DNA of 64,000 nt from an uncultured bacterium (GTDB taxonomy: Bacteria > Verrucomicrobiota > Kiritimatiellia > RFP12 > UBA1067). The notes beneath the pieces are model-generated. The model worked only from the letters and a program-made list of their open reading frames with translations. It did no database searches and was not told the DNA's origin. Both the position numbers and the translations under genes were made by a program. Shown piece after piece: positions 4,348 through 62,864 of this stretch (the stretch's first letter is position 1; every line of letters starts with the position of its first letter). The stretch covers positions 9,592 through 73,591 of the forward strand of contig CADAKF010000001.1 of the NCBI GenBank assembly GCA_902788415.1, in the 5' to 3' direction.

Positions 4348-4348
4348 C

Positions 4349-4404
4349 TTAGACCTTAGACTTTAGACCTTAAACTTGAAACCTGAAACTTGAAACCTGA
4401 AACT
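4349..4404. repeat. Degenerate heptamer tandem array (AGACCTT/AAACTTG type) in the gspH-gspI spacer
   Basis: ttagaccttagactttagaccttaaacttgaaacctgaaacttgaaacctgaaacta; supplies the AAGG SD of gspI. Confidence 0.7.
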
Positions 4405-5630: not shown

Positions 5631-5677
5631 TTCAGCTTCCTTTCAGGTTGAGGACTTTAGACTTGAGACATAAGACT

Positions 5678-13306: not shown

Positions 13307-13348
13307 GTGTGCTCCTTAGTTGGTAGTTGGTAGATGGTCGTTGATAGA

Positions 13349-13592: not shown

Positions 13593-14354
13593 TCATTTTA
13601 AGCCGCCCGTGGCAACCAGGACACTGACGGCGAAAAGAGCCGCCGTTTCCGCCCTCAGGACCGTCGGGCCAAACGAAGTCGGAACCGCGATCTCAAGAAG
13701 CGCCGCCAACTCGGCCGGCGTGAAATCCCCCTCGGGACCGATGAAGACCGAAAAATTCCGCTGTTCACCTTTACCTCTCACCTTCACCTGTGACGCCACG
13801 GCCTCGGCCAACGGTCGAGCCGGCGGCGTCACCAGCGCGCCGACGAAACAGGTCGTCTCCTTCACCATTTCCAACGCATCCCTGAAGTTGACCGCCTCGA
13901 CGATCTCCGGCAGCCACTTTGCGTCCGACTGCCGCGCCGCGTCCTCGGCAATACGCATCCAGCGCTCGCGCTTCGCCGCGCGCTCCGCCTTGGGAATGCG
14001 GACAATCGTCCGGTCGCTGATGACGGGGACGATGCGCGTGACGCCGAGCTCCGTCGCCTTCTCGACCGTCCAGTCCCAGCGCGACCCCTTCGTCACGCAG
14101 GCGAAGAGGGTCAAGGTTTGAGAGGTTTGAGAGGACTGAAAGGCTTGAGAGGTCGCCAAGAGGGGAGAAGCGGATTCCTTTCCGCTCGCAAGCGAAGCGC
14201 AAAACCTATAAACTCTCCACTTCCCCTTCCCGTCGAAGAGCTCGATCTCCTCGTCGTCTTTGGGACGAAGAACCTTCAGATGCCGCGCCGCGTCCGCCGG
14301 CAGAACCGGCGACGTCTCCTCCAACACATGCGTCTCGACTAAAAGTCTATGCAC
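13593..14354 (-). CDS. rsmE: 16S rRNA (uracil1498-N3)-methyltransferase RsmE, carrying in-frame repeat insertions
   Basis: Conserved PUA N-terminus and C-terminal [16 protein letters not shown]...[10 protein letters not shown]; insertions [14 protein letters not shown]...SQTSQT and [10 protein letters not shown] are encoded by repeat DNA. Confidence 0.8.
14164..14205 (-). repeat. Palindromic mini-element (family C) copy 1, in-frame in rsmE
   Basis: GGAGAAGCGGATTCCTTTCCGCTCGCAAGCGAAGCGCAAAACC; near-identical copies at 22141-22183 and 57336-57362. Confidence 0.8.
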
Positions 14355-14374
14355 CTTCTCCCCCTCTCACCTTC

Positions 14375-15451
14375 TCACCCTCTCACCTTCTCCTCCCCGC
14401 CGTGGTAGACGACGGCGCTGATAAAAGCCGTGAACGGGGCGACGAGAACGAGTCCGAAGCTGCCGACGAGCGTCTTGACGACCTCCGCCGAGACAAGCGT
14501 CGAGTTGATGAAGTCAAGCGGCGCGGTTCCCTGGGCGGCGAAGACCATGAGAAGCGTCAGGTAGCCGCCGGAATAGGCGAGGAGCAGCGTCGTTGTCATC
14601 GTCCCCACGACCGAGCGCCCGACGCGAAGACCGGACAGGAGCAGCTCCCGCCGCGAAAGCCCCGGATTGTGCCGCGCGACCTCCGCGGTTGCGGAGGCGA
14701 TGTCCATCGCCAGATCCATCACCGCACCGGACGACGCCAGGATGACCGCGCCCGTGAAGACGTCCGCAAGGTCGAGATCGACGTAGCCAGAGTAGAGCAG
14801 CGTCTGCACAAACGGCATCGTCGCGCCGTTCACGTGCATCACCGCCGCAAAGAACTCCGCAAGCCCCAGCGACACGACCACGCCGAGCATCGCCCCGAGA
14901 AATGCCGAAATCCCCTTCTTCGTCCGCCCGGCGACGAGGTACATGATGACGGCCGTGAGCACCGAGACGACGGCGAACGACGTCCACCCCGCGGGCCATC
15001 CGGAGAGGCAGAGCGGAATGAGCAGCTTCCACACCGCGAAGCAGCTGAACACGAAGCTGAAGAGCGCCTTCGCGCCCGTCCAACCCCCGAAGGCAACGAG
15101 CAGGAGGGCAAACCCGCCGAACAGAACCGTCATCCAGCCGAGCCGCCAGTGATCGCGGGCGATCAGCGGATCAGGACCGAGAATGACGAGCGCCGTATCG
15201 CCGACGGCGAACTTCTTGTCAAGCTCCAGCTGTGCGCGGATTTCGTTGTGCGCGTCATGGACGCTCCCGTCCGGCAGCCGCACCTTCAGCTTCTGCGTCC
15301 CGAACTCAACGAGGCCGTGGACCTGCAGCCCGGAATCGTCGACCTCGACGACCTCCGCACGGGACGTCTCTCCGCCCTCGTTCGCCAACTTGCGCGGACC
15401 GGGCAGGAACCACATCCCCGCGCACGCCGCCGCCAGCACAATTATCGAAAC
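14375..15451 (-). CDS. YibE/F-family polytopic membrane protein (start uncertain)
   Basis: Multiple TM helices with a Gly-rich YibE/F-like pattern; the C-terminal tail GGEEKVRG is encoded by the 8-nt tandem repeat CTCACCTT; start chosen downstream of the phoA stop. Confidence 0.5.
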   Translation of the reverse strand, partial: VSIIVLAAACAGMWFLPGPRKLANEGGETSRAEVVEVDDSGLQVHGLVEFGTQKLKVRLPDGSVHDAHNEIRAQLELDKKFAVGDTALVILGPDPLIARDHWRLGWMTVLFGGFALLLVAFGGWTGAKALFSFVFSCFAVWKLLIPLCLSGWPAGWTSFAVVSVLTAVIMYLVAGRTKKGISAFLGAMLGVVVSLGLAEFFAAVMHVNGATMPFVQTLLYSGYVDLDLADVFTGAVILASSGAVMDLAMDIASATAEVARHNPGLSRRELLLSGLRVGRSVVGTMTTTLLLAYSGGYLTLLMVFAAQGTAPLDFINSTLVSAEVVKTLVGSFGLVLVAPFTAFISAVVYHGGEEKVRG

Positions 15452-18059: not shown

Positions 18060-18565
18060 GCGGCGGGAATCAGGAACAGGAGAACGAGATTCGTCAGGTT
18101 GAAGAGCCCGTGGTTCAGGATCGCATAGCAGAGGCGGCCGGTCTTCTTGTAGAGCCAGCATTGGGCAAGACCGAAGAAGAAGAGGGCAACAAAAGCCGAG
18201 TCCGGAAACGGCTGGAAAACGTAGTGGGCGGCGGAAAAGAGGACGGATGAGACAACCGCCATCAACCTCGCAAGTGCACGGTTTTTCATCGGAGCGTCGG
18301 AGCATCCGACCAGCCGACCAAGTGCGGAATAGATTCCTTTTCTGAAAATCAGTTCCTCAACGGCCGGGAGGAGGAGGAGAATCTGCACACAGAGGAAGGC
18401 GAACTGCCAGTTCCAGCCAGCAACCCTGCGGACAATCTCGAGGTTCTCCTGGTCCGGCAGCTCGACGCCGACCCACTTGGCGACAACCTGCGTCAGATAG
18501 CAAAGGCCGATGGTCGCAGCTGCGATCACCGGCCAGGCCTTGAGGGTTAGTTTGAGGGAGGACAT
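18056..18565 (-). CDS. CPBP family intramembrane metalloprotease (CAAX protease-like)
   Basis: EELIFRKG, FSAAH and HGLFN motifs; start taken at MSSLKLTLKAW. Confidence 0.7.
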   Translation of the reverse strand: MSSLKLTLKAWPVIAAATIGLCYLTQVVAKWVGVELPDQENLEIVRRVAGWNWQFAFLCVQILLLLPAVEELIFRKGIYSALGRLVGCSDAPMKNRALARLMAVVSSVLFSAAHYVFQPFPDSAFVALFFFGLAQCWLYKKTGRLCYAILNHGLFNLTNLVLLFLIPAA

Positions 18566-18646
18566 AAGACGGAAGAGAGGAGACGCGAGAGGACGTAAGA
18601 CGTGAGACGACTGGCGTAAATGTCTCACGTCTCTCGTCTAAAGTCC

Positions 18647-20458
18647 TTAGCCCTCGGCGCCTTGCCCGACTTCGCTGCCAGTTCCGCGAATCTTCAAGTG
18701 CAATTCCCTTAGCTGCTGCTCGGTCACGTAGTTCGGCGCGTTCATCATGAGGTCCTGGGCCTTCTGGTTCATCGGGAAAGCGATGACCTCGCGGATGTTC
18801 GGCGTATCGGCAAGGAGCATGACCATGCGGTCCACGCCCGGGGCGATGCCGCCGTGCGGCGGAGCGCCGAACTGGAACGCGTTGTAGAGGCAGCCGAACT
18901 TCTGCTGGACGACTTCCTTGGGGTACCCCGCGATCTCGAAGGCCTTCTCCATGATGTCGATGCGATGGTTGCGGATCGCGCCCGAGGAGAGCTCGATGCC
19001 GTTGCAGACGACGTCGTACTGGTAGGCCTCGATGGTGAGGGGCTCCTTCTGCTCAAGCGCCTCGAGCCCGCCCTGCGGCATCGAGAAGGGATTGTGCGAG
19101 AAGATGATCTTTCCTGTCTCGGGATCCTTCTCGTAGAACGGGAAGTCGACGATCCAGCAGAACTTGTAGCAGTTCTTCTCGCAGACGTTGTTCGTCATAT
19201 GGTTGGCGATGTCGGTGCGGACGAGGCCCGACAGGCGGTTGCACTCGTCGACATCGGCCGCCATGAAGAAGAGCGCGTCGCCAGGTTCCATGCCGGCGAG
19301 CTTCTTCATCTCCTCGAGCTGCTCGGGAGAGAGAAACTTCGCGATCGGCCCCTTGAGCTCGCCTTCCTTCGTCCAGGAAATGTAGCCGAGGCCCTTGCCG
19401 CCGTTCTCCTTGACGAACGCCTCGCGCTTGTCGAACCACGTGCGGGCCTCGACGCCGACGATCCCCTTGACCAGCATACCCTTGACGAGGCCGCCCGAAG
19501 TCGCCGTATTCGCGAACGCCTTGAAGTTCGCCTTCGCGAAGAAGTCGTTCATGTCAAACCACTTGAGGGGATTGCGGAGGTCCGGCTTGTCGCTGCCGTA
19601 CGTCATCATCGCGTCGCGGTACTTGATGCGCGGCCACGGCGCGGCATTGCAGGACCAGGTCGAGAACTTCTGGAAGGTCTTCCCGACGACGTCCTCGACG
19701 ACGGCGAAGATCTCGTCCTGCGTCACGTAGCTCATCTCGATGTCAAGCTGGTAGAATTCGCCCGGCGAGCGGTCGGCGCGCGCGGCCTCGTCGCGGAAGC
19801 ACGGCGCAATTTGGAAGTACTTGTCAAAGCCCGAGACCTGCAGGAGCTGCTTGAACATCTGCGGGGCCTGCGGAAGGGCGTAGAACATGCCGCGGTGAAG
19901 ACGGCTCGGGACGAGGTAGTCGCGCGCGCCCTCGGGCGAGCTCGCCGTCAGGATCGGGGTCTGGAACTCGTTGAAGCCCTTCGCCCACATCTGCTCGCGC
20001 AGGAACTTGATCACCTCCGAGCGGAGGATCAGGTTCTTGTGCAACTTCTCGCGGCGAAGGTCGAGGAAGCGATACTTGAGACGCATGTCCTCCGACTCGT
20101 CGGCCTTCTCGTCGGGGATGTAGATCGGCGTCACCTCGGACGCCGACTCCATGACGAGCTCGTTAGCCTCGATTTCGATCTCGCCGGTCGGGAGGTCGGG
20201 ATTGATCGTGTCGGCCGTACGGAGCTTCACCTCTCCCGTGACGGTAATCACCGACTCGAGGTGCGCCTTCTCGACGAGGCCGAAGAACTTGCGCGACGGA
20301 TGGATGACAACCTGCGTGAGACCGTAGTGGTCGCGGAGGTCCACGAAAAGGATTCCGCCGTGGTCGCGAAGACGGAACATCCAGCCAGAAAGACGAACGA
20401 TCTTGCCCGCGTCCGAAGCGCGGAGCTCATTGCACGTATGGGTACGATAAGGATGCAT
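18647..20458 (-). CDS. aspS: Aspartyl-tRNA synthetase
   Basis: [13 protein letters not shown] start; class II aaRS motifs (FRDE, GLDR); GGGAG RBS. Confidence 0.95.
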
Positions 20459-21833: not shown

Positions 21834-22553
21834 TTATGAAATCATTTTCAAGACCTCTCTCCGCGCAACGGAAAGACTGTCTAGATGGAACTGATAGAAT
21901 ACACCAATTGCCCTCGCCGCGTCAAGGGGGGTCTGCGAGTTTCTTGCGTTTTCAGCACCATCCGCCAAATATTCGGCAACTTCTCGTGAAACGCGAATGC
22001 ATCGACCTTCATTCGCGCCAAACGTCCCGTTTTCAAGCGAAAACGCCGACCAACCGGCAGATTTGTCATAGTTCGCGAAGTCCGGCGCAAGCCCCGACAG
22101 CCGCAAGACCTCCAGTTCGAATCCCAACATTCCCGAGAGTGGAGAAGAGGAATCCTTTCCGCTTGCAAGCGACGCGCAAAAATCTAACCTCCGCGTCAAA
22201 GCTTCATACCACATCTCGCACTCCGAACCCATCGGGGCGAGCTCGGAGACAAGTCGGCGGAAGTATCCCGCAAGCGTAAGCGCGCGGTAGTCGCCGCGCA
22301 GGCCTTCGCGCAGCTCGAGCGGAACACAGTCTCGGAGGGCGTGCAGTTCGCCTTTCGCACGCGCGTAGTAGAGGATTTCGCAGGTATAGTTGAGGTCGTA
22401 CTGTCCGAGGAAGGCGCTTTTCGGGCGAACTGCGCCCTTCACGACCGTGGCGACCTTTCCGGATGGCGTCAGCCAGGAGACGATGTGACTTGTCCGCGAC
22501 CACGGACGCACGTCCAGGCAAACCGCCTCCGCCCGTATCGTCTCTCCCGCCAT
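21834..22553 (-). CDS. recO: DNA repair protein RecO, carrying an in-frame repeat insertion
   Basis: MAGETIRAEAVCLDVRPWSRTSHIVSWLT OB-fold N-terminus; insertion [14 protein letters not shown] from the palindromic element. Confidence 0.7.
   Translation of the reverse strand: MAGETIRAEAVCLDVRPWSRTSHIVSWLTPSGKVATVVKGAVRPKSAFLGQYDLNYTCEILYYARAKGELHALRDCVPLELREGLRGDYRALTLAGYFRRLVSELAPMGSECEMWYEALTRRLDFCASLASGKDSSSPLSGMLGFELEVLRLSGLAPDFANYDKSAGWSAFSLENGTFGANEGRCIRVSREVAEYLADGAENARNSQTPLDAARAIGVFYQFHLDSLSVARREVLKMIS
22141..22183 (-). repeat. Palindromic mini-element (family C) copy 2, in-frame in recO
   Basis: GGAGAAGAGGAATCCTTTCCGCTTGCAAGCGACGCGCAAAAATC; hairpin AAGCGGAA-TCCT-TTCCGCTT plus CGCTTGCAAGCG palindrome. 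Confidence 0.8.
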
Positions 22554-34018: not shown

Positions 34019-34062
34019 GCCGTCACACCTCTTAATCTCTTTACCGCTTAACCTCTTAACCG

Positions 34063-34593
34063 CTAAAAGAGCTTCCCTCTCTGCTGCAGCTCCTTGATGT
34101 TCCCGCCCGCGCTGCGGTTCACCTCTCTCAACCACAGCTCCACCAGCGCGACATCCCACGGATCGTCCACGCACTGCACAACCGCGGCAAACTTGTCGTT
34201 CGAGGCGATCACCTCGTCCTTCACGCGCTCGGCGACAACCGAGAGACGGTCTGTCACAATCTGCTCGGAGAAGTTGTCGCTTTTGAGACTATAGCCATAT
34301 TGGAGAATTCGAAGGTTCTCTTCGTTCTCCTTCAGGAACTCGAGATAGGCCCGAGCCTCGTCCCCGAAGCCCTCCGTCTCGATGTCCGACACGTGAGGCG
34401 TGATGACAAGCGGCTGATGTGCCTCAAGGCGACCCTCGCGGACGCGCACCTTGCCCGGATGGTCGTCTAGCTCGGAGATGAGGTGATAGTTGACGAGCGT
34501 GCTTCCGAACGTCTCGAGGCGATGGCTGGGTTCCACGAGGAACCTCGCGCTCTTCGCGGCATACCACCGATCAAAATCCGGATTCGAACTCAT
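34063..34593 (-). CDS. Hypothetical protein
   Basis: 176-aa ORF with coding-like composition; no recognisable motif. Confidence 0.4.
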   Translation of the reverse strand: MSSNPDFDRWYAAKSARFLVEPSHRLETFGSTLVNYHLISELDDHPGKVRVREGRLEAHQPLVITPHVSDIETEGFGDEARAYLEFLKENEENLRILQYGYSLKSDNFSEQIVTDRLSVVAERVKDEVIASNDKFAAVVQCVDDPWDVALVELWLREVNRSAGGNIKELQQRGKLF

Positions 34594-34686
34594 GTCTATA
34601 GCTTTTAGCTTTTAGCGTTTAGCGTTTAGCTTTTGGGGGCGCGCTCGTCCATCCCGTCCAGCAAGCTCACCGCTAATCGCCAATAG

Positions 34687-35193
34687 CTAACAGCTTCCCT
34701 TCCCGCAGCACTTCTTGTACTTCTTACCGCTGCCGCACGGACACGGATCGTTCCGTCCGACCTTCGGCTCCTCGCGCACAATCGGCTTCTCGCCGACAAG
34801 CTCGCCGTCCGCAAACTTCCAGCCGTCGTCCTCCTTCACGAAGTTCGAGACCTCGTGATGGTTGCAGAACTCGCCATTGGCCGTATAGAGCGCACGAAAC
34901 TCCACCATGCCCTTCTTGTGACGCTTCGTGCCGCCCTCGGTCTTGACGATCTCAAGCCCGTGCCACTCGGCAGACTCGCTCCACGCCCTTGAGGCCTCCT
35001 CGTCGAATTCCTCCTGCACCGCCCGTGTGGCGCTCGTCTTCAGGAACGCGATGTTGCCGGTCACGTACGAGCTGTACCGCGCGCGCATCAGCGTCTCGGC
35101 GGTCTCCGCCTTCGCCGTCCCAGCGATGATCGGACCGCAGCATTCTCCAAAAGTCTTACCCGACTTACAGGGACAAAGTTCTTCGTTGTTCAT
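34687..35193 (-). CDS. ychJ: YchJ-family protein with N- and C-terminal SEC-C zinc motifs
   Basis: [14 protein letters not shown] at the N-terminus and [14 protein letters not shown] at the C-terminus. Confidence 0.8.
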
Positions 35194-36838
35194 AATGTGC
35201 CTTGTATTTTACCAAAATCATCGACAGTATGAGAAGAGCAAAGGCAATCCCGAGCGGAATATCTCCCAACCAAACATAAACCGTCCACTGTTCACCTTCA
35301 CCTTTCACCTTCACCTTGTCAAACATCGTCCCCTCTTTGTCCACCAGCGGCCTCCCGTTCGGCCCGACCAGCCAGCTCGTCTTGCCGCCCGGCGCAATCG
35401 TCCCCGTGACGCCACTATTGCCGACACGCACCACCGGAAGCCCTGTCTCGATTGCCCGCGCGACCGCCTGCCACGCATGCTGCTCGGCCTCGACCGAGTG
35501 CGAAAACCAGCTGTCATTCGTGATGAAGAACAGAACCTTTGCACCCTTCTTCGCCAGCTCCCTCATTTGCGCCGAATCGGTGTCCTCAAAACAGATCGCC
35601 ACTCCCGCCTCAACGTGCTGTCGTACGCTTGCTGTCTCTCCCCCGATCCTCAGCGTCTTCAGCTCGCCCGCCGTACAGCTCCCGACCGGCGCAAGCTTCT
35701 GCAGCGCCGTAATCCACTTGTCGCCCGGAATGAATTCGCCGAACGGCACAAGATGCACCTTGTCGTAAACGTCTACCCTTGTTGTCGTACGCGTGTCATT
35801 CTCTTCCCCTGAATACAACGCAGCTGAGTTGAAGGTTTTCCCGTCTTCATACCGCGTTCCGCCCGCCAAGAGCGCCGCGCCGCCCGTCTTCTTCGCAACC
35901 CACTCGGCAAACCTCACCGCGCCCTGCTGGTCCACCGGCCCGAACTCGCACATCGCGCTCTCTGGCAAGACGACAAGATCGGGCCTCAGCATCGCCACAT
36001 TGTCCAACAACCTCTCGTAAATCTCAATCGGCCGCTCCTCCTGCGCTTTGAACACGCACGGAAAGTTCCGCTGCACCATCGCCACCTTCAAGCTCGCACC
36101 GTCCTGACAAGGCGCCGGCTCCAGCCGCGCCAAAGCATAAATCCCCCACACCACCCCGAACGCCAGCAATGTCTCAAGTGGCCCAAGACGCTTCAGATTG
36201 GCAAATCCGCTCCGCTCCGGCTTCCAAACCCTTTCGGCGATCCCCGCAATCGTCCCGTTGATGAGAACAACGACCGCCGAACAAAGGTACACGCCGCCAA
36301 GTGCCGCCGGCGCGCCGAACCCGCTGTTGACTGGCACCACCCCCAGCTGGTTCCACGCGAACCCGCCCAGGAACCGGCTCCGCACCAGCTCCAGCCCGCA
36401 CCACAACACCGGCTCGACAATCAAGATTCCCAACAATCTCCATCCATACCGGCCTCTGCGTCTCCGTGTCTCTGTGTTTAAATCGATCCCCTTCGCCCAG
36501 CGCCAATACTTCGCGCTCAGCCATCCGTACGCGGCAAAGTACGCCGCGCAATACGCCGCGAGCGCAAACCACCCCAAGACCACGAGCGGCCAGGGCCCGC
36601 CGTTCTTGACAATTGCCGGCATCCACGACAAGGTCGCAATCCAGTAGAAGACGCCGCTCTGGAACCAGCGCTTCGCGACGATTCCCGCGCTCACCTCGCG
36701 CCGTGAGAGCCACATCAGCGGCGCCAGCGCGAAAAGGCAGTCCATCCGCTCCCCCATCGGCGGATACGCCGCCCACAAGAGGAACCCCGGCAAATACCAG
36801 AGAAACGGCTTGAGCTTCTTATAAAGTTCCGTGAACAT
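35165..36838 (-). CDS. lnt: Apolipoprotein N-acyltransferase, with at least four in-frame repeat insertions
   Basis: N-terminal TM bundle plus CN-hydrolase domain ([10 protein letters not shown]..., VAICFEDTD). Confidence 0.85.
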
Positions 36839-36879: not shown

Positions 36880-39123
36880 TTACGCCGGATCCCAGCTCAA
36901 GTCCACGCGCGTCGACACCCCTTCCGGCGTTTCAAACGTCCGCGGCGTTTTCTTCGTCGTGACCCAAAGTCCATCCCGCGGAAAGACCGCCAGGTCCTCC
37001 GGCCGTCCCGCCGGCTCGGTGAGCGAAACGAAAAGCGGCGTCGACTGCTGCGTCAGGAACTCGACATCATATCCGCTTTCGGCCAGATACTGCAGGTTCT
37101 CGCGGGTGTTCTCCGGACTCGCCACAAACCTCTTCACACCCATCTCCGAGAGCTCCGCCAGGGCCCGCGAATTAAACGCATAGAGCGTCCAGTCGGCCGT
37201 GATATCCGTGACACCCAGCTCCTTCAGCATCCTCAAGGTCGCGAGATCGCTCGCCTCCCACTTCGAAAACCCCTTGCGCAGCAAGCCCTTCACCGTGACC
37301 CGCAAGCGATTGAATTCCGGTTCGGCGGTATACACAGGCAAAGCCAATCTGAACTTATCCGACCCGCTCGACTCCAGCCCGTCCCTATCCGACCCTATCA
37401 ACACGATAATCTCATCCCACTCGCCTGCCGGAACCTTCTGCCCAGACCGAATCTTAACCCTCCGCAGATGGTCGGATGGTCGGATGCACCGATGCTCCGA
37501 TGATAAATCACCGCCAACGAAGTCATCCGCGATTGCGGAGCCGATTTTCTCGTGTCTCTCCTTCTCCCGCGCCTCGTCGAGCTTTTCAACCAAGTCTCTT
37601 CTCAAGTCGTTCAGCACGCTCATCGGTGCGAACAGTTTCTCCGGATCGACAACACTCACCTTCCTGAGCCGGTAATCGCTCCCACCCAGTTTCGAGAACG
37701 CCTTCTTCACGCCCTCTGCCGTCTTCTCCGGATTCTTCGCAGGCTGCAACTCGCAATCGACGCATGCTTCGACAGCAAAGGGACTCAAGACCTTAGCCGA
37801 AAGACGCGAACCGGAAAGCGACACCTCAATATCCAAACCAATCCCGCCCTCGTAGTCGCTCGGCCTGAAGCTGGGCGTCGGGAACAGGCGCTTGACGGCG
37901 TTCGACATCGAGCAGTAGATCTTCATCCCCGGCTTGAGCGCCCGCTCGACGTCCTCGCTCACCAGCACCTCGACGTCCACGCCCGCGTTCACCTCGAACA
38001 CCGGCCTCCTTGAGATCGCCTGGCGCATCTCGACGATGCCCATGCCGAGATGGCGCCCCTCGTCCGTCATCGCCTCGAACTGCAGTCCATCATGCTTCTC
38101 CAGCCCGCGCGCCGTGTGGAACCGGAGCCAGCGCTGGCCCTCGCGGTCCTTCGTCACCCGCTTCACGACCCCGATTTCGGCACCCAAATGCCCCAAACTC
38201 TCCGAATCGATCACCCCGTCTTGCTGTCGTACGCTTACCGTCTTCCCCCGCCCCTCGAAATACAGCTTCGTCGTCCGCCGCGAGAAAACCGTCTCCAGAT
38301 CACCGATCGTCACCCCGCCTCTGTGTCTCTGTGTCTCTGGGTTTAAAATCTCCCGATAATACCGCGTCACGCTCGCGACATACAGGGCGCTCTTCATCCG
38401 ACCTTCGATCTTCAAACTGGCGACGCCCGCGTCCGCCAGTTTCCGCACGTCCTCCCCAAGACGCAAATCCTTCATCGAAAACGGATAAAGAGAGGTGAAG
38501 GCCGACGCCTGCCGACAACAGTACGGACATTTGCCGCGGTTCCCGCTCCGGCCCTTCTCCATTGCGCCAAACAAGCACAGCCCCGAAATCGAATAGCAGA
38601 GCGCGCCGTGGATGAAGACCTCGAGCTCCATGTCGCCGCAGCGCTTCGCAATCGACGCAATCTCCTCGAGCGACAGCTCCCGTGCGAGCACGACGCGCTT
38701 GAACCCGAGGTCCTTCATCGCGAGGACGCCCTCGAGGTTGTGCGCGACAAGCTGCGTCGACGCATGCAGCTCCAGCCCGGGAAAATGCCTCCGGCAGATC
38801 CGCGCAACGCCAATGTCCTGCACGATCAGCGCATCCGGCCGCACCTCGTCCAATCTCGCCAGCTGCTCAATCGCCGCCTCGATGTTATCCTCGTCGATGA
38901 CCGTATTAAAGGTGACGTAGACCTTCCGACGCCTCTCGCACTGACCGTCCCTATCGCACCTACAATACCTGAGCAGATTCTTGAGGTCCTCGATCCCGAA
39001 GTTGTCCGCAAACGCCCGCGCCGAGAACTCCGTGAGCCCGCAGTAGACGGCATCCGCCCCCGCCTCAAACGCGGCCAGCGCCGTCTCAAAGTTCCCGGCC
39101 GGAGCTAAGAGCTCACAGTCCAT
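36880..39123 (-). CDS. Peptidase U32 family protein (long form), with multiple in-frame repeat insertions
   Basis: MDCELLAPAGNFETALAAFEAGADAVYCGL and ELEVFIHGALCYSISGLC U32 signature regions. Confidence 0.8.
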   Translation of the reverse strand: MDCELLAPAGNFETALAAFEAGADAVYCGLTEFSARAFADNFGIEDLKNLLRYCRCDRDGQCERRRKVYVTFNTVIDEDNIEAAIEQLARLDEVRPDALIVQDIGVARICRRHFPGLELHASTQLVAHNLEGVLAMKDLGFKRVVLARELSLEEIASIAKRCGDMELEVFIHGALCYSISGLCLFGAMEKGRSGNRGKCPYCCRQASAFTSLYPFSMKDLRLGEDVRKLADAGVASLKIEGRMKSALYVASVTRYYREILNPETQRHRGGVTIGDLETVFSRRTTKLYFEGRGKTVSVRQQDGVIDSESLGHLGAEIGVVKRVTKDREGQRWLRFHTARGLEKHDGLQFEAMTDEGRHLGMGIVEMRQAISRRPVFEVNAGVDVEVLVSEDVERALKPGMKIYCSMSNAVKRLFPTPSFRPSDYEGGIGLDIEVSLSGSRLSAKVLSPFAVEACVDCELQPAKNPEKTAEGVKKAFSKLGGSDYRLRKVSVVDPEKLFAPMSVLNDLRRDLVEKLDEAREKERHEKIGSAIADDFVGGDLSSEHRCIRPSDHLRRVKIRSGQKVPAGEWDEIIVLIGSDRDGLESSGSDKFRLALPVYTAEPEFNRLRVTVKGLLRKGFSKWEASDLATLRMLKELGVTDITADWTLYAFNSRALAELSEMGVKRFVASPENTRENLQYLAESGYDVEFLTQQSTPLFVSLTEPAGRPEDLAVFPRDGLWVTTKKTPRTFETPEGVSTRVDLSWDPA

Positions 39124-45227: not shown

Positions 45228-46928
45228 TTACGTGTAGCGCAAGACCTCGTCAACGGTCGTATAGCCGTCAAGAATCGAGCGGATTCCGTCCTCGCGCATC
45301 GTGCGCATGCCGAGCTCGCGGGCCTTTTCGCGGATGATGAGCGTCGGCGCACGGTTGTTGACGAGCTCCCGGAGGGGCGACGACATGCGAAGGTACTCAA
45401 AGACGCCCTTGCGGCCCTTATAGCCCGTCCCATTGCAGGTCTTGCAGCCCTTGCCAAAGTAGAACGGACGCCCGCCGATCTGGTCGCGCGTCATCTCGAT
45501 GCGCTCCAGGGTCTCGTCGTCCGGCTCGTACGCCTGCTTGCATTCCTTGCAGCAGGTGCGGACGAGTCGCTGCCCGAGCACACCCTCGAGCGTCGAGGCG
45601 AGCAGATAGGGCGCGACGTTCATGTCCACGAGACGCATCACCGCGCCGGCGGCGTCGTTCGTGTGCAGGGTCGAGAAGACGAAGTGACCCGTCAGGGCCG
45701 CCTGGACAGCGATCTCGGCCGTCTCGAGGTCGCGGATCTCGCCGATCATCATGACGTCGGGGTCCTGACGCAGGAACGCGCGCAGCACCTTCGCGAAGGT
45801 ATTGCCCGCGTGTGCGTCGATCGGCACCTGGACGATGCCGTCCACGTTGTACTCGACCGGCTCCTCGGCGGTCAGGAGCTTCGTGTCGATCTGGTTGATG
45901 CGGCGGAGAACCGAGTAGAGCGTCGTTGTCTTGCCGGAGCCGGTCGGCCCCGTCACGATGAAGATGCCGTTCGGCTTCTCGATGTCCATCGTGATCTGCT
46001 CATAGACATCCTCCGGAAGCCCCACGTTCTCGAGATCGAGCGACGTCGTCGTCTGGTCGAGGATTCGCATGACGACCGACTCGCCGTGCGCCGTCGGCAG
46101 ACAGCTGACGCGAAGGTCGACCGGACGCCCCGCCACGGTGAGCGCGATGCGGCCGTCCTGCGGCACGCGGCGCTCGGCGATGTTGAGGTTTGAGAGGATC
46201 TTGATGCGCGAGATGATCGCGGGCGCCATCTTCACATCCGGCGCCTTCATCTCGTAGAGCGCGCCGTCGACGCGGTAGCGGATCTTGAAGTCATGCTCGA
46301 ACGGCTCAACGTGAATGTCAGCCGCGTGGTCGACGACGCCCTGGTAGAGGACGAGGTTCACAAACTTGACGACGGCAGACGAGTTCGCCGCGCTCTCCAT
46401 GTTGGCGATGTCGTTCGCGTTCGCGCCGACCGCCAGCGTCTCGTCGTCGGACATCCCCTCGCCGAGGGACTTGATCATGTCCGCGACGGACTCGTTCGAG
46501 TCGCCGTAGTACTGGGCGATGCGGTCCATCACGTCCTTCTCGCGGGCGAAGACAAACCGCACCTCCTTCGAGAGCGTGAACAGCATCTCGTCCGAGATGC
46601 GCGGATCGACGAGGTCGAACGTCGCAAGCGTCACGGACGAGTCGTCCGCCGCCACGGGAAAGACGTTGTACATGCGGGCCGTCGAGGCGGGAATCGCCTC
46701 GGTGACCTCGGACTCGATCGTCATCGCGCCGAGATCGATCGCCTCCGCGTCCTGATAGGCGGCCATCGCCGCAAGGAGCGAATCCTCATCGAGGACGCCG
46801 GAGTCAATGATCTGCCGGCGGACGGACTTGTTCTCGGTCTTGGCGAGCTCGGCGATGTCCTTCGCGCCGGCCTCGTCAACGTATCCGTTCTGTATCAGGA
46901 TTTGAAGTATTTGATCCATGGCAACCAC
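45228..46928 (-). CDS. GspE/PilB-family secretion ATPase (paralog 2)
   Basis: N1 domain, Walker A VTGPTGSGKTTTLYSVL, Asp/His boxes, tetracysteine CKECK...CKTCNGTGYKGRKG. Confidence 0.85.
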   Translation of the reverse strand: MVAMDQILQILIQNGYVDEAGAKDIAELAKTENKSVRRQIIDSGVLDEDSLLAAMAAYQDAEAIDLGAMTIESEVTEAIPASTARMYNVFPVAADDSSVTLATFDLVDPRISDEMLFTLSKEVRFVFAREKDVMDRIAQYYGDSNESVADMIKSLGEGMSDDETLAVGANANDIANMESAANSSAVVKFVNLVLYQGVVDHAADIHVEPFEHDFKIRYRVDGALYEMKAPDVKMAPAIISRIKILSNLNIAERRVPQDGRIALTVAGRPVDLRVSCLPTAHGESVVMRILDQTTTSLDLENVGLPEDVYEQITMDIEKPNGIFIVTGPTGSGKTTTLYSVLRRINQIDTKLLTAEEPVEYNVDGIVQVPIDAHAGNTFAKVLRAFLRQDPDVMMIGEIRDLETAEIAVQAALTGHFVFSTLHTNDAAGAVMRLVDMNVAPYLLASTLEGVLGQRLVRTCCKECKQAYEPDDETLERIEMTRDQIGGRPFYFGKGCKTCNGTGYKGRKGVFEYLRMSSPLRELVNNRAPTLIIREKARELGMRTMREDGIRSILDGYTTVDEVLRYT

Positions 46929-46959: not shown

Positions 46960-48087
46960 TTAACTGCCGTACCCCTCTTCCTTCAGCTTCTGGACGACGG
47001 ATTCAGGATCCTGCGACTTCGTGATGAGCTCCTCGTAGGAAATGAGCCCCTGCTTGTAGAGGTTGGAGAGCGACGTATCGAGCGTGAACATGCCGTACTT
47101 CGCACCGGTCTGCAGGTCGGACTTGATCATGTTCGTCTTGTTGTCGCGGATGCGCGAGCAGATCGCGTCCGTGCGCGTCATGATCTCGAACGCCGCGACA
47201 CGCCCGTGCACCTCGCCGTTCGCGTCGAGCTTCGGCAGGAGAATCTGCGAGATGACGGCCTGCAGGCCCGCCGCGAGCTGCGTGCGGATCTGCGCCTGCT
47301 GGTTCATCGGGAACGCGTCGACGATACGGTCGATCGTCTCCGCGGAGCCGGTCGTGTGCAGGGTGCCGAAAACGAGGTGTCCCGTTTCGGCCGCGGTAAT
47401 GGCCGCCGCGATCGTCTCGAGGTCGCGCATTTCGCCGACGAGAATCACGTCCGGGTCCTGGCGGAGCGCGCGGCGGATCGCCTCGGCGAAGCTCGGGACG
47501 TCGTCACCGACCTCGCGCTGTGTGACGATGGACTTCTTCGACTCGTGGTAGAATTCGATCGGGTCCTCAATCGTGATGATGTGGACGCTGCGCTCCTGGT
47601 TGATGACGTCGATCATCGAGGCGAGCGTCGTCGACTTACCGGACCCCGTCGGGCCCGTGACGAGGATCAGCCCGCGCGGCTTGAAGAGAAGCTCGCGGAC
47701 CGTGTTCGGCAGACCGATCTGCTCGAGCGTCAGGAGCCCCGAGGGAATCTGGCGGAGGACGGCGCCGTAGCGCTTCCTCTCCTTGAAGACGGACACACGG
47801 AAGCGCGTGCCGTCCGGGTGCGCGAGCGCAAAGTCCGCGCCACCGTTCGTCTCGAGCTCCTTCATGAGCTTCTCGATGTCGGGCTTGCGCTTGGGATCGT
47901 TCTCGGCGATGCCGTTCACGAACTCGGTGACGAGCGCCTGGCTCTCGTCGTCGTTCATCGGCTCCTCCGCAAGCGGCAGAAGCTCGCCGTGCACGCGCAA
48001 CAGCGGCGGCATGCGCGCGCGGATGTGGAGGTCGCTGCCCCCTTCGTCGATGATCGCCTGCAACAGCTCGTCTTTGTGGAATTGCAT
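46960..48087 (-). CDS. pilT: Twitching-motility/retraction ATPase PilT
   Basis: MQFHKDELLQAIIDEGGSDLHI..., Walker A LVTGPTGSGKST, AIRRALRQDPDVILVGEMRD; start at M114 of the track ORF, overlapping the upstream stop (TGATG). Confidence 0.9.
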   Translation of the reverse strand: MQFHKDELLQAIIDEGGSDLHIRARMPPLLRVHGELLPLAEEPMNDDESQALVTEFVNGIAENDPKRKPDIEKLMKELETNGGADFALAHPDGTRFRVSVFKERKRYGAVLRQIPSGLLTLEQIGLPNTVRELLFKPRGLILVTGPTGSGKSTTLASMIDVINQERSVHIITIEDPIEFYHESKKSIVTQREVGDDVPSFAEAIRRALRQDPDVILVGEMRDLETIAAAITAAETGHLVFGTLHTTGSAETIDRIVDAFPMNQQAQIRTQLAAGLQAVISQILLPKLDANGEVHGRVAAFEIMTRTDAICSRIRDNKTNMIKSDLQTGAKYGMFTLDTSLSNLYKQGLISYEELITKSQDPESVVQKLKEEGYGS

Positions 48088-49766
48088 CAGTTCGCGTCTC
48101 CCATGGTGACTCTCAGGACCTCGGCGAGGGACGTCATCCCGCTCGCCACCTTCAGCATGCCGTCTTCGCGCAGCGTCCGCATGCCCATCTCGCGGGCACG
48201 CTGCCGGAGCAAGGTCGCCGGCGCGTGGTCGAAGATGAGCCGCTGGATCGTATCGTCGACCTTGAAGATCTCGAAGATGCCCTTCCGGCCCTTGTAGCCG
48301 GTCTTGCCGCACCGGTCGCAGCCCGCGCCGTGGTACATCGTGTCGGGCACGGTCGCGTTCGTCCCGCTCGCAAGGCCCGTCAGCATCCTGATCTCGCGCT
48401 CGGTCGGCGTGTAGCTCGTCTTGCACGTCTCGCAGATGGCGCGCACGAGACGCTGGGCCATCGCCGCGCGGAGCGCGGAGGCCACGAGGAATGGTTTGAC
48501 GCCGATGTCGAGGAGTCGCGTGACGGCGGACGGCGCATCGTTCGTGTGCAGCGTCGAGAAGACGAGGTGGCCCGTGAGGGCCGCCTCCATCGCGATGTCG
48601 GCCGTCTCCGCGTCGCGGATCTCGCCGATCATCACAATGTTCGGGGCCTGGCGCAGGATCGAGCGGAGCGCCGCCGAGAAGTCGAGGCCGACGTCCTTGT
48701 TGACCTGCACCTGGTTGATGCCGCTCATCTGGTATTCGACCGGATCCTCGACCGTGATGAGCTTCTTGTCGGGCGTGTTAATCTGACCAAGACAGGCATA
48801 GAGCGTCGTCGTCTTGCCCGAACCGGTCGGCCCCGTCACGAGCACCACGCCGTCGGGGAGCTTGATGAGCTTTTCGAACGTCGTCTGGTCGTCGGAGAGA
48901 AAGCCAAGCTGCGGCAGGCCGAGCGAAAGGTTCGACTTGTCAAGGATTCGCATGACGATCGACTCGCCGTGATTCGTCGGCACCGACGAGACGCGCAGGT
49001 CGAGATCGCGCCCGCCGACCGTAATCTGGATGCGGCCGTCCTGCGGAATGCGCTTCTCGGAGATCTTCATCTTCGACATGATCTTGAAGCGCGAGAGAAT
49101 CGCGCCCTGCAGACGCTTCGGCGGCGAGTCCATCTTGCGGAGCGCGCCGTCGATGCGGTAGCGGACGCGAAACTCCTTCTCCATCGGCTCGATGTGGATG
49201 TCGGACGCCTTCATCTTGATCGCCGTGGTGATGATCATGTTGGCGAGCTTGATGACCGCGCCGTCGTCGCCCACGGCGGCGGCGTCGCCCAGACCCTCCT
49301 CGTCGCGCGTCGAGACGGTGGACTCCTCCTCGGACGGATAGAGCTTCGCCATCGCGGCCTTCACCTCGGCGAGAGGCGACAGGACCGTCTGGACGTCTTT
49401 CCCGGAAAGGACATAGCGGAGCGAGTCAACCGCGTCATAGCCCATCGGATCGATGAGCGCCACCGTAACGGAGCTCTCGTCCGCCACGACCGGGACGACG
49501 CCGTACTTCTTGGCGATATCAGCCGAAATCGCCTTCGCCGCCTCCTCGTTGATGGCAGAGGCATCGAGATGGCAGTACTTGAGGCCGAACTGGTCGGCAA
49601 TCGTGCCAAGAACCGTGTCCTCGTCCAGTGCGCCGCCCGCCACCAGGACGTCGAGCGTCGTCTCGTTCTCCGCCTTCATCGAAGACGCGGCGGTCTGAAC
49701 CTGCTCCGCGGTCAGATACCCGCGCTCGGTCAGAAGCTGAAGGACATACTCGTCGTTACTTGTCAT
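48087..49766 (-). CDS. GspE/PilB-family secretion/pilus-assembly ATPase (paralog 1)
   Basis: Walker A VTGPTGSGKTTTLYACL; tetracysteine CETCK...CDRCGKTGYKGRKG; GSPII N-domain. Confidence 0.85.
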   Translation of the reverse strand: MTSNDEYVLQLLTERGYLTAEQVQTAASSMKAENETTLDVLVAGGALDEDTVLGTIADQFGLKYCHLDASAINEEAAKAISADIAKKYGVVPVVADESSVTVALIDPMGYDAVDSLRYVLSGKDVQTVLSPLAEVKAAMAKLYPSEEESTVSTRDEEGLGDAAAVGDDGAVIKLANMIITTAIKMKASDIHIEPMEKEFRVRYRIDGALRKMDSPPKRLQGAILSRFKIMSKMKISEKRIPQDGRIQITVGGRDLDLRVSSVPTNHGESIVMRILDKSNLSLGLPQLGFLSDDQTTFEKLIKLPDGVVLVTGPTGSGKTTTLYACLGQINTPDKKLITVEDPVEYQMSGINQVQVNKDVGLDFSAALRSILRQAPNIVMIGEIRDAETADIAMEAALTGHLVFSTLHTNDAPSAVTRLLDIGVKPFLVASALRAAMAQRLVRAICETCKTSYTPTEREIRMLTGLASGTNATVPDTMYHGAGCDRCGKTGYKGRKGIFEIFKVDDTIQRLIFDHAPATLLRQRAREMGMRTLREDGMLKVASGMTSLAEVLRVTMGDAN

Positions 49767-55143: not shown

Positions 55144-55195
55144 ATGCTTTTAGCTGTTAGTGGCTGTCACCTTCAATTTCACTAAACGCTAATAG

Positions 55196-56488
55196 CTAAC
55201 CGCTAATCGCTTTCTTCAAGACCAATATTCCGTTGTGCCCACCGAAACCGAGCGAGCTCGAGAGCGCCACGCGGATCTCGCGCTGCACGCCGACGTTCGG
55301 CGTGTAGTTGAGGTCGAGCGGAACCTCGCCCTTCGTCGCGTCGACCTCGAGGTCGGGATTCTCGTAGTTGATCGTCGGCGGGACGAACCCCTCCTTGATC
55401 GCCAGCGCCGTAATCGCGGCCTCGATTGCGCCCGCCGCGCCAAGCGCGTGCCCGTGCATCGACTTGGTGGACGAGATGTTGATCTTCTTCGCGCCCTCCT
55501 CGCCGAACACCTGCTTGAACGCCTTCGTCTCCATCTGATCGTTGAGCTGAGTCGAGGTGCCGTGCGCGTTGATGTAATCGACCGTCGACTTGTCCGTCAC
55601 CCCGGCGTCCTTCAGTGCGATCTCGATCGCCTTCACCGCGCCGACGCCGGACGGATCGGGCGCCGTGATGTGATAGGCGTCTGACGTCGCACCATAGCCC
55701 GCGAGCTCCGCGTAGACCTTCGCGCCGCGTGCCGTCGCATGCTCCTCGGATTCGAGAATCAGCACCGCAGCACCCTCGCCGACGACAAAGCCGTCGCGAT
55801 CGGCGTTGAACGGACGGCAGGCCCTCTCGGGCGTATCATTGAACTTCGTCGCAAGGGCTCTCTCCTTCATGAAGCCGCCGACCACGAATTCCGTCACGCA
55901 GGCCTCAGCTCCTCCGGCGACCACGACGTCCGCCCGCCCGGCGCGAATCATGTCCAGCGCCACGCCAAGCGCATCCGTCGAACTCGCACACGCCGTGACG
56001 ACGACCTGCGCAGGCCCCTTCGCCCCCAGCGCGATGGACACGTTCCCGGCCGCCTCGTTCGGAATGAGTTCGGGAACGGCAAGCGGCGAAAGCCGGTCCG
56101 GCCCCTTGTCGAAAAGCGTCTTGTAGTTTTCGCCCGTCACCTCGATGCCGCCGATGCCGACGCCGAAAATCGTCGCGACCCGATCCATATCGGGCTTCTG
56201 CTCGTCCGTAAACCCGGCATCCCGCCACGCCTCCACGGCCGCCGTGACGGCAAACTGCGAAAAGCGCGCCATATGCCGCGCGGCCTTCTTGTCCAGCAAC
56301 CCCGAGCCGATGGCATACGCCTCAAAATCCTTGACCTCGCCAGCAACCTGACTTGTGCAGCGCGAAGCGTCAAACTGCGTAATCTTCCCGATGCCGGGCT
56401 TCCCTGCCTTGATGCTCTCCCACGCCGCCGCCTTGCCGTTGCCGTTTGCGCACAGCATCCCGATACCAGTAATCACAACCTTCTTCAT
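55196..56488 (-). CDS. fabF: 3-oxoacyl-ACP synthase II
   Basis: MKKVVITGIGMLCANG...; active-site Cys in ACASS; HGTSTQLND; GHALGAAGA. Confidence 0.95.
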   Translation of the reverse strand: MKKVVITGIGMLCANGNGKAAAWESIKAGKPGIGKITQFDASRCTSQVAGEVKDFEAYAIGSGLLDKKAARHMARFSQFAVTAAVEAWRDAGFTDEQKPDMDRVATIFGVGIGGIEVTGENYKTLFDKGPDRLSPLAVPELIPNEAAGNVSIALGAKGPAQVVVTACASSTDALGVALDMIRAGRADVVVAGGAEACVTEFVVGGFMKERALATKFNDTPERACRPFNADRDGFVVGEGAAVLILESEEHATARGAKVYAELAGYGATSDAYHITAPDPSGVGAVKAIEIALKDAGVTDKSTVDYINAHGTSTQLNDQMETKAFKQVFGEEGAKKINISSTKSMHGHALGAAGAIEAAITALAIKEGFVPPTINYENPDLEVDATKGEVPLDLNYTPNVGVQREIRVALSSSLGFGGHNGILVLKKAISG

Positions 56489-61637: not shown

Positions 61638-62864
61638 TCACGCCTTTTTCTTGAGCACCACGAGCGTCTCGAACCGCGCCGTGCGCGGGAACATGTTGAA
61701 CCAGCGAACGGACTCGATGTCGTATCCGCGGCAAATCGTCTTGAGGTCCCTGACCAGCGTCGCCGGATCGCAGCTGACGTAGAAGATGCGCGGCGCCTTC
61801 GACTCCGCAAGCCACATCGGCACGTTCGACTCCATCCCGTCCCGCGGCGGATCGACGATCACCGTCGTATGTCCGTTGACGGAGATGCGCCTCAGGTTCT
61901 GTCCGACCCGTTCCGCCCAGAACTTCGCATTCGCAAACTTCTGCGCCGCGGCATTTCTTTTCGCGAAGTCGATGGCCTGACGCCCCGACTCGATGCCAGT
62001 CAGTTTCGGCGGATTGCAGCAGAGCCCGAACACGCCAACGCCGCAGTAGAGGTCGACGATCTCCGGCGCGTCCTTCGCGCCCTTCTCGTACTCGGCGACA
62101 ACCGTCTTCACGAGCTCCTCGCCGACCTCGGGATTCACCTGGTAGAAGCCGTCGGCGGGAACCTCGAAGTCCCTGCCGCACGTCGTCTCCTTGAGGACAA
62201 GCCCCTTCGGCGCATCGCCAACCCACCACTTGACGCCCGTCTTCGCCGTCCAGCGCACGGTCACGTTGCCCTTGCGTTCGGTGTCGCGGCGGACTGCCTC
62301 CGGCCCGGTCGTCAGGAGCGTCAGTACGGCCTTGCGGATCTCACCGAGCTTCGCGTTGATCTCGGGACGCGCCAGCGGATCCGACTCAACATCGACAATC
62401 TCATGGCTCGGCTCCGTCCGATACCCGATCGCCCACTTGCCCTTCTGCTTCGCAAAGTGATAAACGACCTTGTTGCGGTAGTTAAGCGGTTGAGCGGTTA
62501 AGCGGTTAATCGGTTGAGTCGTTTGCGGGATGACCAGCCTCGCGCGTTCAAAGAACTCGCGCAGCTGCTGCTCCTTCGCCTCGCACTCGCCCTTGTAGCT
62601 GAGATCGGCGTAGACCATCCCGGGAACCCTGATCCCTGATCCCTGACCCCTGATCCCTATCGTCGGATCGTCCATGCGATCCGGCGACTTCTCGACGACT
62701 TCAACGAGCCGCGCCTTGACGAAGTGCTTCTTCTCCTCGACGATCTCGGCCCGCACCTGTTCGCCGGCCCAGGCGCCGGGCACGAAGACGACGCGCCCGT
62801 CGCCGAGACGGCCGAGGCCGTCCCCGCCGTAGACGTTCTTCGCGATGTAGACGGTCGAGATCAT
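61638..62864 (-). CDS. rlmD: 23S rRNA (uracil-5)-methyltransferase RlmD/RumA family, with in-frame repeat insertions
   Basis: TRAM N-terminus; VDLYCGVGVFG SAM motif; TVIVDPPRDG; insertions TTQPINRLTAQPLN and GIRGQGSGIRVPG are encoded by tandem repeats. Confidence 0.8.
   Translation of the reverse strand: MISTVYIAKNVYGGDGLGRLGDGRVVFVPGAWAGEQVRAEIVEEKKHFVKARLVEVVEKSPDRMDDPTIGIRGQGSGIRVPGMVYADLSYKGECEAKEQQLREFFERARLVIPQTTQPINRLTAQPLNYRNKVVYHFAKQKGKWAIGYRTEPSHEIVDVESDPLARPEINAKLGEIRKAVLTLLTTGPEAVRRDTERKGNVTVRWTAKTGVKWWVGDAPKGLVLKETTCGRDFEVPADGFYQVNPEVGEELVKTVVAEYEKGAKDAPEIVDLYCGVGVFGLCCNPPKLTGIESGRQAIDFAKRNAAAQKFANAKFWAERVGQNLRRISVNGHTTVIVDPPRDGMESNVPMWLAESKAPRIFYVSCDPATLVRDLKTICRGYDIESVRWFNMFPRTARFETLVVLKKKA

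Follow-up and report, generated by a model that had tools for sequence, protein, structure and literature searches.

The 64-kb window analysed here, which is the whole stretch of contig CADAKF010000001.1 under study, comes from an uncultured bacterium of the Kiritimatiellae and carries on its minus strand two neighbouring genes encoding an apolipoprotein N-acyltransferase (Lnt) and a U32-family peptidase (Table 1). Each gene contains one copy of a 31-nucleotide (nt) segment, which we propose to be a single arm of a dispersed repeat family translated in frame with its host. Lnt sequences from the PDB match the Lnt of the window at 4.5e-22; the open frame of the peptidase gene extends to 39261, and its homologues begin at 39126. 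Since the Pfam domains are LNT_N and CN_hydrolase in one host and Peptidase_U32 and DUF3656 in the other, the two are unrelated proteins, as an earlier note on this DNA had stated.

Table 1. Host genes and repeat arms in the 64-kb window (positions count from the first letter of the window).
Feature	Position	Strand	Details
Apolipoprotein N-acyltransferase gene (lnt), 557 aa, intact	35165..36838	-	Pfam LNT_N 2.2e-21, CN_hydrolase 6e-20
U32-family peptidase gene with DUF3656, 748 aa	36880..39126	-	Pfam Peptidase_U32 2e-68, DUF3656 1.1e-17
Solo arm in lnt	36452..36482	-	TTTAAAC-ACAGAGAC-ACGGAGAC-GCAGAGGC; in-frame 10-residue peptide; plus strand reads GCCTCTGCGTCTCCGTGTCTCTGTGTTTAAA
Solo arm in U32 peptidase gene	38317..38347	-	TTTAAAC-CCAGAGAC-ACAGAGAC-ACAGAGGC; in-frame LNPETQRHRG; plus strand reads GCCTCTGTGTCTCTGTGTCTCTGGGTTTAAA

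The two copies match without a gap, 28 of the 31 positions being identical (plus-strand consensus GCCTCTG[C/T]GTCTC[C/T]GTGTCTCTG[T/G]GTTTAAA), so that the optional 'CTCTGG' gap in the alignment of the earlier note is unneeded. The similarity ends at either side of the segment, and the flanks of the two copies do not align. Both copies lie on the coding strand of their host and in the identical reading frame; on that strand, the heptamer TTTAAAC is followed by three 8-nt units RCRGAGRC, which read by position (lnt/U32) as (A/C)CAGAGAC, AC(G/A)GAGAC and (G/A)CAGAGGC. Tandem Repeats Finder returned both as period-8 arrays (CTCTGTGT; 3.0 and 2.6 copies). The lnt copy is translated as 14 residues, residues 117-130 of the protein, and the U32 copy as ILNPETQRHRGG. 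Pairs of 31-mers with at most three mismatches fall on five diagonals in the real window, namely the lnt/U32 pair, two paralogous ATPase genes, a 49-nt family termed D16 (two diagonals) and a pair of TTCACC arrays. No such pair was obtained in 20 triplet-shuffled windows, and dinucleotide shuffles of the window gave 0 matches. The repeat is therefore real and goes beyond a chance low-complexity match. Within the 64 kb the arm is present only in these two copies, which share one orientation and lie 1865 nt from each other; no inverted partner arm was found near either copy in the window, and neither copy shows a local fold (z = -0.65 and +1.38).

Alignments of 120 Lnt and 120 U32 homologues (67-99% identical) show presence, absence and replacement of the segment at both sites. 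In Lnt, the interval between W-x-W-A-(K/R) and Y-x-x-R-L-L-G holds 3-5 residues only in 24 of the 120 sequences, as in 'WAKC-GTYGRR'. The remaining homologues carry either an insert of the present type, G[IVM]DLNTE[TA]QRH... or the close variant DDHAETQRRRG, or unrelated inserts at the same site, among others NSNTQNLQNSNTS, FSGNRTIEQSNNS, DLAAKRAQRGRKG and PHSPHFPHFPHFPH. The variable site of the peptidase lies between Y-Y-R-x-I-L and V-T-x-x-D-L-E-T-V-F; its short form is DNARTR (insert-free example 'ILDNARTRVT') and its long forms comprise N[PT]E[TA]QRHRGG, EAHAETQRRRGG, TGTTENAKVAKR, DSNRELSTAADRRRR, EKCSNVRMLECSNRH, GEREQGTGNREQVR and more. In the DNA of six syntenic loci the inserts are short tandem arrays or small palindromes, and in the orthologous locus L006 both host sites carry one and the same alternative combination of anchor and unit, TCAC-GCAGAGAC. 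Because orthologues lack the segment or carry other tandem arrays at the same two positions, the likeness of the two hosts is attributable to inserted DNA in variable loops and not to homology; the segment is thus repeat DNA, in agreement with the earlier note, and sits in loops that tolerate it. Judged by these alignments, both sites are indel hot spots, at which several repeat types occur in related genomes.

The position of the inserts within the proteins is consistent with such tolerance. The LNT_N profile of 159 positions is stretched over 178 residues of the window Lnt, and the HMMER alignment to Escherichia coli Lnt begins directly after the insert. In a structure model of low confidence, with a mean predicted local distance difference test (pLDDT) score of 55 and used for its secondary-structure boundaries alone, the Lnt insert is a coil between helices 83-116 and 131-157; the U32 insert (residues 261-271) is modelled as a coil after helix 247-261 (mean pLDDT 73). 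The Lnt insert is kept in at least 16 near-identical metagenome proteins from separate assemblies (ENA and Logan); for U32, the cluster P0121 of 72 member sequences is 100% identical to the window protein over 747 aa. Among 16 near-identical strains, variation affects 4 of the 14 residues of the Lnt insert but 22 of the 543 residues in the rest of the protein (odds ratio 9.5, p = 0.003), and this higher variability is consistent with weak constraint. Types of insert combine freely between the two sites, and the arms of orthologous U32 genes are more alike than the U32 and Lnt arms of one genome, for which reason a general concerted evolution of the two sites was rejected. Locus L006 is an exception, and the pair P0047/P0172 probably shares one alternative variant at both sites in the same way; homogenisation between the Lnt and U32 sites is thus occasional at most.

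The repeat family extends far beyond this lineage. A scan of one genome per prokaryotic species (596 Gb) with the pattern TTTAAACNCAGAGRCNCRGAGRC gave at least 119 stretches in species genomes, where our arithmetic predicts about 2 by chance, an over-representation of more than 50-fold. The matches listed include Kiritimatiellia, Verrucomicrobiota (with the isolate Chthoniobacter flavus Ellin428), Chlamydiota, Planctomycetota, Bacteroidota (with the isolate Bacteroides gallinarum DSM 18171 and with Phocaeicola coprophilus), Acidobacteriota, Chloroflexota and Cyanobacteria, and also Undibacterium, Caulobacteraceae and others, some of them Proteobacteria. An arm is composed of an A/T-rich or TCAC-type outer anchor and then three or four tandem, purine-rich units of 8-9 nt with the form C-R-C-R-R-A-G-R. 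When at least two such units, an anchor at the distal end (TTTAAAC, TTAAC, CTCAC or TTCACC) and an inverted partner are taken as the marks of the family, each window copy has three units, of the kind that also flanks the GxxExxY genes described below, together with the TTTAAAC anchor, and stands alone as a solo arm. Among the matches listed the copies are mostly intergenic, and 48 of 132 have an inverted partner within 150 nt, the other 84 being solo arms; roughly 40% of copies form one side of a perfect hairpin. A more general array pattern gave 62 inverted pairs with a spacing below 300 nt, which was below 200 nt for 59. The typical complete element consists of TTTAAAC(ACAGAGRC)3, an A/T-rich loop and the inverted copy, with a perfect 29-bp stem, and an example of this hairpin folds at -52.3 kcal/mol (z = -12.7). 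In Undibacterium spp. (L025, L078, L087, L091) even the TTTAAAC anchor is repeated, in the form of 8-nt units (CTTTAAAC)n that precede (ACAGAGAC)n, and these blocks form long multi-block hairpin arms, which suggests that the whole element is built of 8-nt modules. A phage origin was rejected, a single match having been found in 2.9 million viral contigs, and so was a known RNA family, as Rfam covariance models at gathering score had 0 matches in eight hairpin-bearing loci. No description of the repeat family was found in the literature searched (repeat strings, GxxExxY, PF13366/TIGR04256, STRR and Kiritimatiellae tandem repeats).

The family is associated with one particular gene. When the open reading frames (ORFs) within 3 kb of the 119 listed loci were compared all against all, the only family that recurred across phyla was a small protein of about 125 codons matching TIGR04256 'GxxExxY protein' (7e-38) and Pfam PDDEXK_3 (PF13366; 1e-36), which places it by profile match in the PD-(D/E)XK nuclease superfamily. 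An arm and its inverted copy bracket the gene exactly in a rumen Kiritimatiellae metagenome-assembled genome (MAG; L047) and in L057, L090 and L114, and in L069 the gene adjoins one arm. Since these loci had been chosen through the repeat, a reverse test was begun from the protein alone: 80 metagenome loci were fetched by GxxExxY protein similarity, and in the 69 with both flanks the 200 nt upstream were aligned to the reverse complement of the 200 nt downstream, controls having the same geometry shifted by 900 nt. The median inverted-repeat score was 36 at GxxExxY loci and 16 in the controls, and a score of at least 40 was reached by 29 of 69 loci against 0 of 82 controls, whose maximum was 26. 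The flanking arms consist of tandem CGCAGAGR, CGCAAAGR, CACAAAGR, CGCGAAGR or CGCCAAGR, and their outer anchors include TTTAAAC (as in L047 and L166), TTAAC, CTCAC and TTCACC. In 23 loci the gene has the purine-rich arm on its upstream side and the inverted arm on its downstream side, the clean opposite being seen once. The L006 copies have a TCAC anchor that corresponds to those of L169, L172 and L193, and because the GxxExxY arms share these anchors and units, the L006 variant TCAC-GCAGAGAC and the inserts TGTTENAKVAKR and DLAAKRAQRGRKG (CGCAAAG units) can be assigned to the same family. PDDEXK_3 is catalogued as a family of unknown function, with mixed clades that suggest many transfers (PMC3424549). 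Neither the PADLOC defence models nor the PDB sequences gave a match to the GxxExxY protein.

Further copies of the arm are found in or beside other genes. A PrmC copy in another genome reads LNTETQRRRGG, in the same frame as the window copies, while an Lgt copy is read in a different frame as FKHRDTEARRG; in a Chlamydiae MAG the arm is read through in the DnaX linker. In the rumen MAG RUG10619 (L032, about 730-830), CTP synthase reads through a complete two-arm hairpin (…TQRHRDTESNTKHLCASVPLCLK…), located within the region matched by Pfam GATase and directly before the conserved ILVPGGFG motif. In L007, a solo CAGAGAC arm (ATCGATTTTTAACACAGAGACACGGAGACACAGAGG; 11347-11363) occupies the whole interval from a fabH-like gene to acpP and ends 6 nt before the ATG, its AGAGG being a stretch that may serve as ribosome-binding site; this arm and the lnt copy of the window both have an extra upstream ATCGATTT. 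In all coding copies the purine-rich strand is the sense strand and gives hydrophilic peptides, an orientation that fits selection filtering random events. The occurrence of the composite outside genes and its other frame in Lgt indicate that the similarity lies in the DNA and not in a protein motif, which bears out the earlier view that the stretch is repeat-derived.

Building on the repeat nature of the two segments, their status as inserts, their position in loops, the spread of the family across phyla and its link to GxxExxY genes, we propose that the segments are solo arms of a family resembling repetitive extragenic palindromic (REP) sequences and transposable elements of the miniature inverted-repeat type (MITEs), tied to GxxExxY genes and tolerated in frame; we put the probability of this interpretation at roughly 0.7. 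It goes further than the earlier note, in that the family is spread over many phyla, an inverted pair (a hairpin or the flanks of a GxxExxY gene) is its complete form and the host sites appear as indel hot spots. This inverted pair of arms is usually a perfect intergenic hairpin of about 29 bp and otherwise a bracket around a GxxExxY gene, and single arms would have become lodged in two housekeeping genes of this Kiritimatiellae lineage. There they would sit at length-tolerant loops, in a stop-free orientation and frame giving a hydrophilic, arginine-rich peptide, and would consequently be translated, as passenger loops, and passed on together with the gene. It can be hypothesised that the family propagates itself as selfish DNA, the putative GxxExxY nuclease being the mobilising or homing enzyme. 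By analogy with RAYT/REPIN and with insertion sequences (IS) and their MITEs, the gene-carrying cassette could be the autonomous form and the hairpins and solo arms its derivatives; the PD-(D/E)XK protein would act on the iterated arms or on their hairpin or cruciform, and solo arms may come from incomplete copying, in which repair uses another copy as its template, or from the decay of a complete element. As a broader and more tentative proposal, for which we rate the chances at somewhat under even, GxxExxY genes and tandem-octamer inverted repeats may constitute an undescribed class of selfish element across many phyla, comprising gene cassettes, abundant gene-less hairpins and solo arms. 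In such a class the PD-(D/E)XK protein would recognise the arms or the hairpin/cruciform and drive copying to new places, among them tolerant loops of essential genes, where the arms would be a recurrent source of variation in protein length.

Several observations weigh against the proposal that the window segments are passenger arms of a GxxExxY-linked family. No target-site duplication or clean boundary between empty and filled sites was found. In U32, TTTAAAC overlaps conserved Ile-Leu codons and the net gain over the 'empty' allele is only 12 nt, so this copy looks more like a replacement than a simple insertion. Random insertion does not predict several repeat types at the same two sites; a hot spot, inter-lineage recombination or in-place turnover would have to be invoked for them. 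The types of insert are scattered over the neighbour-joining tree of Lnt, with 44 parsimony changes for 7 states; as this tree is perhaps poorly resolved or blurred by recombination, we claim no number of insertion events. Conservation of the U32 arm in many species (NTE[AT]QRHRGG) means that it may not be strictly neutral. Neither the 64-kb window nor any of the seven orthologous loci L001-L007 contains a GxxExxY gene, which leaves the link unsupported within this genome, and the nuclease activity and mobility role of the protein are themselves putative.

The main rival is that arms and hairpins form a cis-element kept by selection, such as a bidirectional terminator, an RNase III stem, an mRNA stabiliser or a Shine-Dalgarno-like site, the coding copies then acting as internal pausing or ribosome-loading signals. 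Complete hairpins are indeed intergenic and often at gene ends, numerous further short arrays of the window border on stop or start codons, GAGG, GGAG or AAGG motifs occur in the units, and the L007 arm presents AGAGG 6 nt ahead of the acpP start codon. The variable positions of the units show only A/G changes, which keep G-U pairing, a regularity partly imposed by the search pattern. The window copies, however, are partnerless, unfolded single arms, and orthologues lack them or have unrelated arrays at the same spot. The perfect 29-bp stem is far longer than that of a typical intrinsic terminator, no Rfam family matches the eight hairpin-bearing loci searched, and the tight link to GxxExxY genes is left unexplained. 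We consequently hold a selected cis-element to be unlikely. We disfavour more strongly, as improbable, the idea that each loop expanded an 8-nt unit locally by slippage and that the likeness is convergence in an array-prone genome. The window does contain more than 12 arrays of 7-9-nt period with various units, and the length of the arrays differs by whole units among orthologues (for example FSGNRTIEQSNNS and ...IEQSEQSNNS). Independent slippage would nevertheless have to account for two features common to both copies besides the unit, a non-repeat anchor of 7 nt (TTTAAAC) and the GAGGC at the close, for a composite recurring at least 119 times in other phyla where about 2 are expected, for the other anchor and unit combination shared by the two L006 sites, and for shuffles that yield no such pair.

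It is less probable still that LNTE(T/A)QRHRGG was selected as a useful short linear motif, for instance a positively charged cytoplasmic loop, with the DNA likeness as a secondary effect. This explanation would suit the good conservation of the U32 peptide across species, the use of one frame by three of four Kiritimatiellae coding copies and the location of an Arg-rich peptide between predicted membrane helices of Lnt. It is difficult to reconcile with the fact that most copies are non-coding, with the other frame of the Lgt copy and with the many orthologues that have unrelated peptides or none; moreover, no other part of Lnt varies as much as the insert when near-identical strains are compared. 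To an artefact of assembly or sequencing, in the form of chimeric low-complexity sequence, we attach next to no weight: short tandem repeats are prone to mis-assembly, but the Lnt insert recurs in separately assembled proteins, the U32 cluster has its 72 members, both genes stay in frame and the family is present in isolate genomes. Two other identities were considered and rejected. TTTAAAC is the classic slippery heptamer (U_UUA_AAC) and lies in the zero frame in both genes; a programmed -1 frameshift site was dismissed on the grounds that there is no downstream structure, that Lgt uses another frame and that most copies are non-coding. A diversity-generating retroelement or hypermutation cassette was set aside, as no reverse transcriptase or template repeat lies nearby and the modest variation fits relaxed constraint.

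The window holds other repeats as well. A second family is represented by two 47-nt copies, 87% complementary, in which 8-nt units (CATCGGAG / CATCCGAC) follow a TTT(A/T)TC anchor; one (37461-37507) is in frame in the U32 gene (SSEHRCIRPSDHLRR), in another hypervariable loop of low pLDDT, and the other (18282-18328) lies between MiaB-like and AspS genes. A TRAM/uracil-5-methyltransferase-like gene (ORF 61638..62864) has two in-frame tandem arrays, at 62481-62515 (GTTAAGCG units, giving TTQPINRLTAQPLN) and at 62627-62658 (CCCTGAT units, giving GIRGQGSGIRV), the first being an inverted copy of an array directly upstream of parA (34024-34067). Arrays of 7-9-nt period are found at 4346-4404, 5648-5678, 13317-13347, 14114-14153, 14352-14393, 18619-18652, 34027-34064, 34599-34634 and 55182-55211; they comprise 3-5 units of various sequences, are richer in A/T than the genome (62% GC), directly follow the stops or precede the starts of minus-strand genes and resemble the cyanobacterial short tandemly repeated repetitive (STRR) sequences. 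The intergenic 49-nt family (14156-14204, 22133-22181 and 57328-57376; 65-88% identity) contains a small hairpin (AAGCGGAatcctttCCGCTT) and then GCAAGCGA(A/C)GCGCAAAA. A TTCACC hexamer array near the C-terminus of lnt (35291-35317; KVKVKGEGE) has a near-identical counterpart 21.5 kb away (13764-13789). The paralogous ATPase genes (45517-46325 and 48400-49208) are 2883 nt apart with 70-75% DNA identity, have a third, partial relative at 47596-47682 and are probably an ordinary family of secretion or pilus ATPases.

Translated selfish DNA in essential proteins is well documented mainly for Rickettsia. The same behaviour is now met in a lineage of the Planctomycetota, Verrucomicrobiota and Chlamydiota (PVC) group that lives freely or in the gut, the unit being far smaller, and the unit of the window can be traced to a repeat family common to very distant phyla. 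As in-frame selfish DNA, the present case is solid and moderately interesting; the wider family and its GxxExxY partner appear to be undescribed in the literature searched. The association offers a testable function for a large and widespread protein family catalogued as 'function unknown'. The repeat family also explains an annotation nuisance, namely the spurious ORFs and odd low-complexity peptides (TETQRHRG, NAETQRRRG and LCVSVSL, for example) that many genomes show, and the length variation of orthologues at fixed loops, stemming from repeat DNA, matters for the alignment, phylogeny and gene calling of MAGs.

The closest parallel in behaviour is provided by the Rickettsia palindromic elements (RPEs), which were reportedly first described by Ogata et al. 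in 2000. RPEs are selfish repeats found in frame in protein-coding genes of Rickettsia (PMC10969869), and like them the arms described here lie in frame in unrelated housekeeping genes, add a peptide compatible with the fold and are present or absent among orthologues. RPEs are, however, whole palindromes of about 100-150 bp confined to Rickettsia and with no associated gene, whereas the window copies are single arms of tandem octamers, 31 nt long and non-palindromic, in Kiritimatiellae, and belong to a many-phyla family linked to a PD-(D/E)XK gene; the resemblance is thus one of behaviour only, and membership was rejected. In architecture, REP/REPIN-RAYT systems are comparable, since palindromic repeats outnumber a small enzyme gene flanked by the same repeats and form intergenic hairpin doublets. 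RAYT is a HUH/Y1 (IS200-like) enzyme, and REP sequences are genus-specific and extragenic by definition. Here, by contrast, copies are intragenic, the arm sequence is nearly the same across phyla and the flanked gene is of the GxxExxY PD-(D/E)XK type, so this identity was likewise rejected. A transposase partner was discarded too, as no transposase-like family recurs in the ORFs within 3 kb of the 119 listed loci, where GxxExxY is the sole recurrent family. The intervening sequences (IVSs) of 23S rRNA genes in Leptospira and Coxiella carry a small ORF ('S23p'/four-helix-bundle) between long inverted repeats and are excised from the RNA by RNase III. They share with the present family an ORF of about 120 codons between stem-forming inverted repeats and a location inside an essential gene that is not killed thereby, but the window arms stay in the mRNA and are translated, and the ORF family is PDDEXK_3 and not PF05635. 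Cyanobacterial STRR heptamer arrays and small dispersed repeats, said to have been reported by Mazel in 1990 and Elhai in 2008, are similar in their 7-9-nt period, their intergenic scatter and the occasional presence of very small repeats inside genes. Their units differ from the GxxExxY-linked arms in sequence and are lineage-specific, and they are not known to have an anchor, an architecture of inverted pairs or a nuclease gene associated with them. With MITEs, the family has in common that gene-less hairpin derivatives far outnumber a gene-carrying form with the same terminal inverted repeats (PMC10969869); it differs in having internally tandem-repetitive arms, no transposase of a known IS, no target-site duplication and a mobility that is putative. 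Differing from all of these systems in size, sequence, host range and enzyme, the family is a member of none; it resembles RPEs in its behaviour and REPIN/RAYT systems or ORF-bearing IVSs in its architecture.

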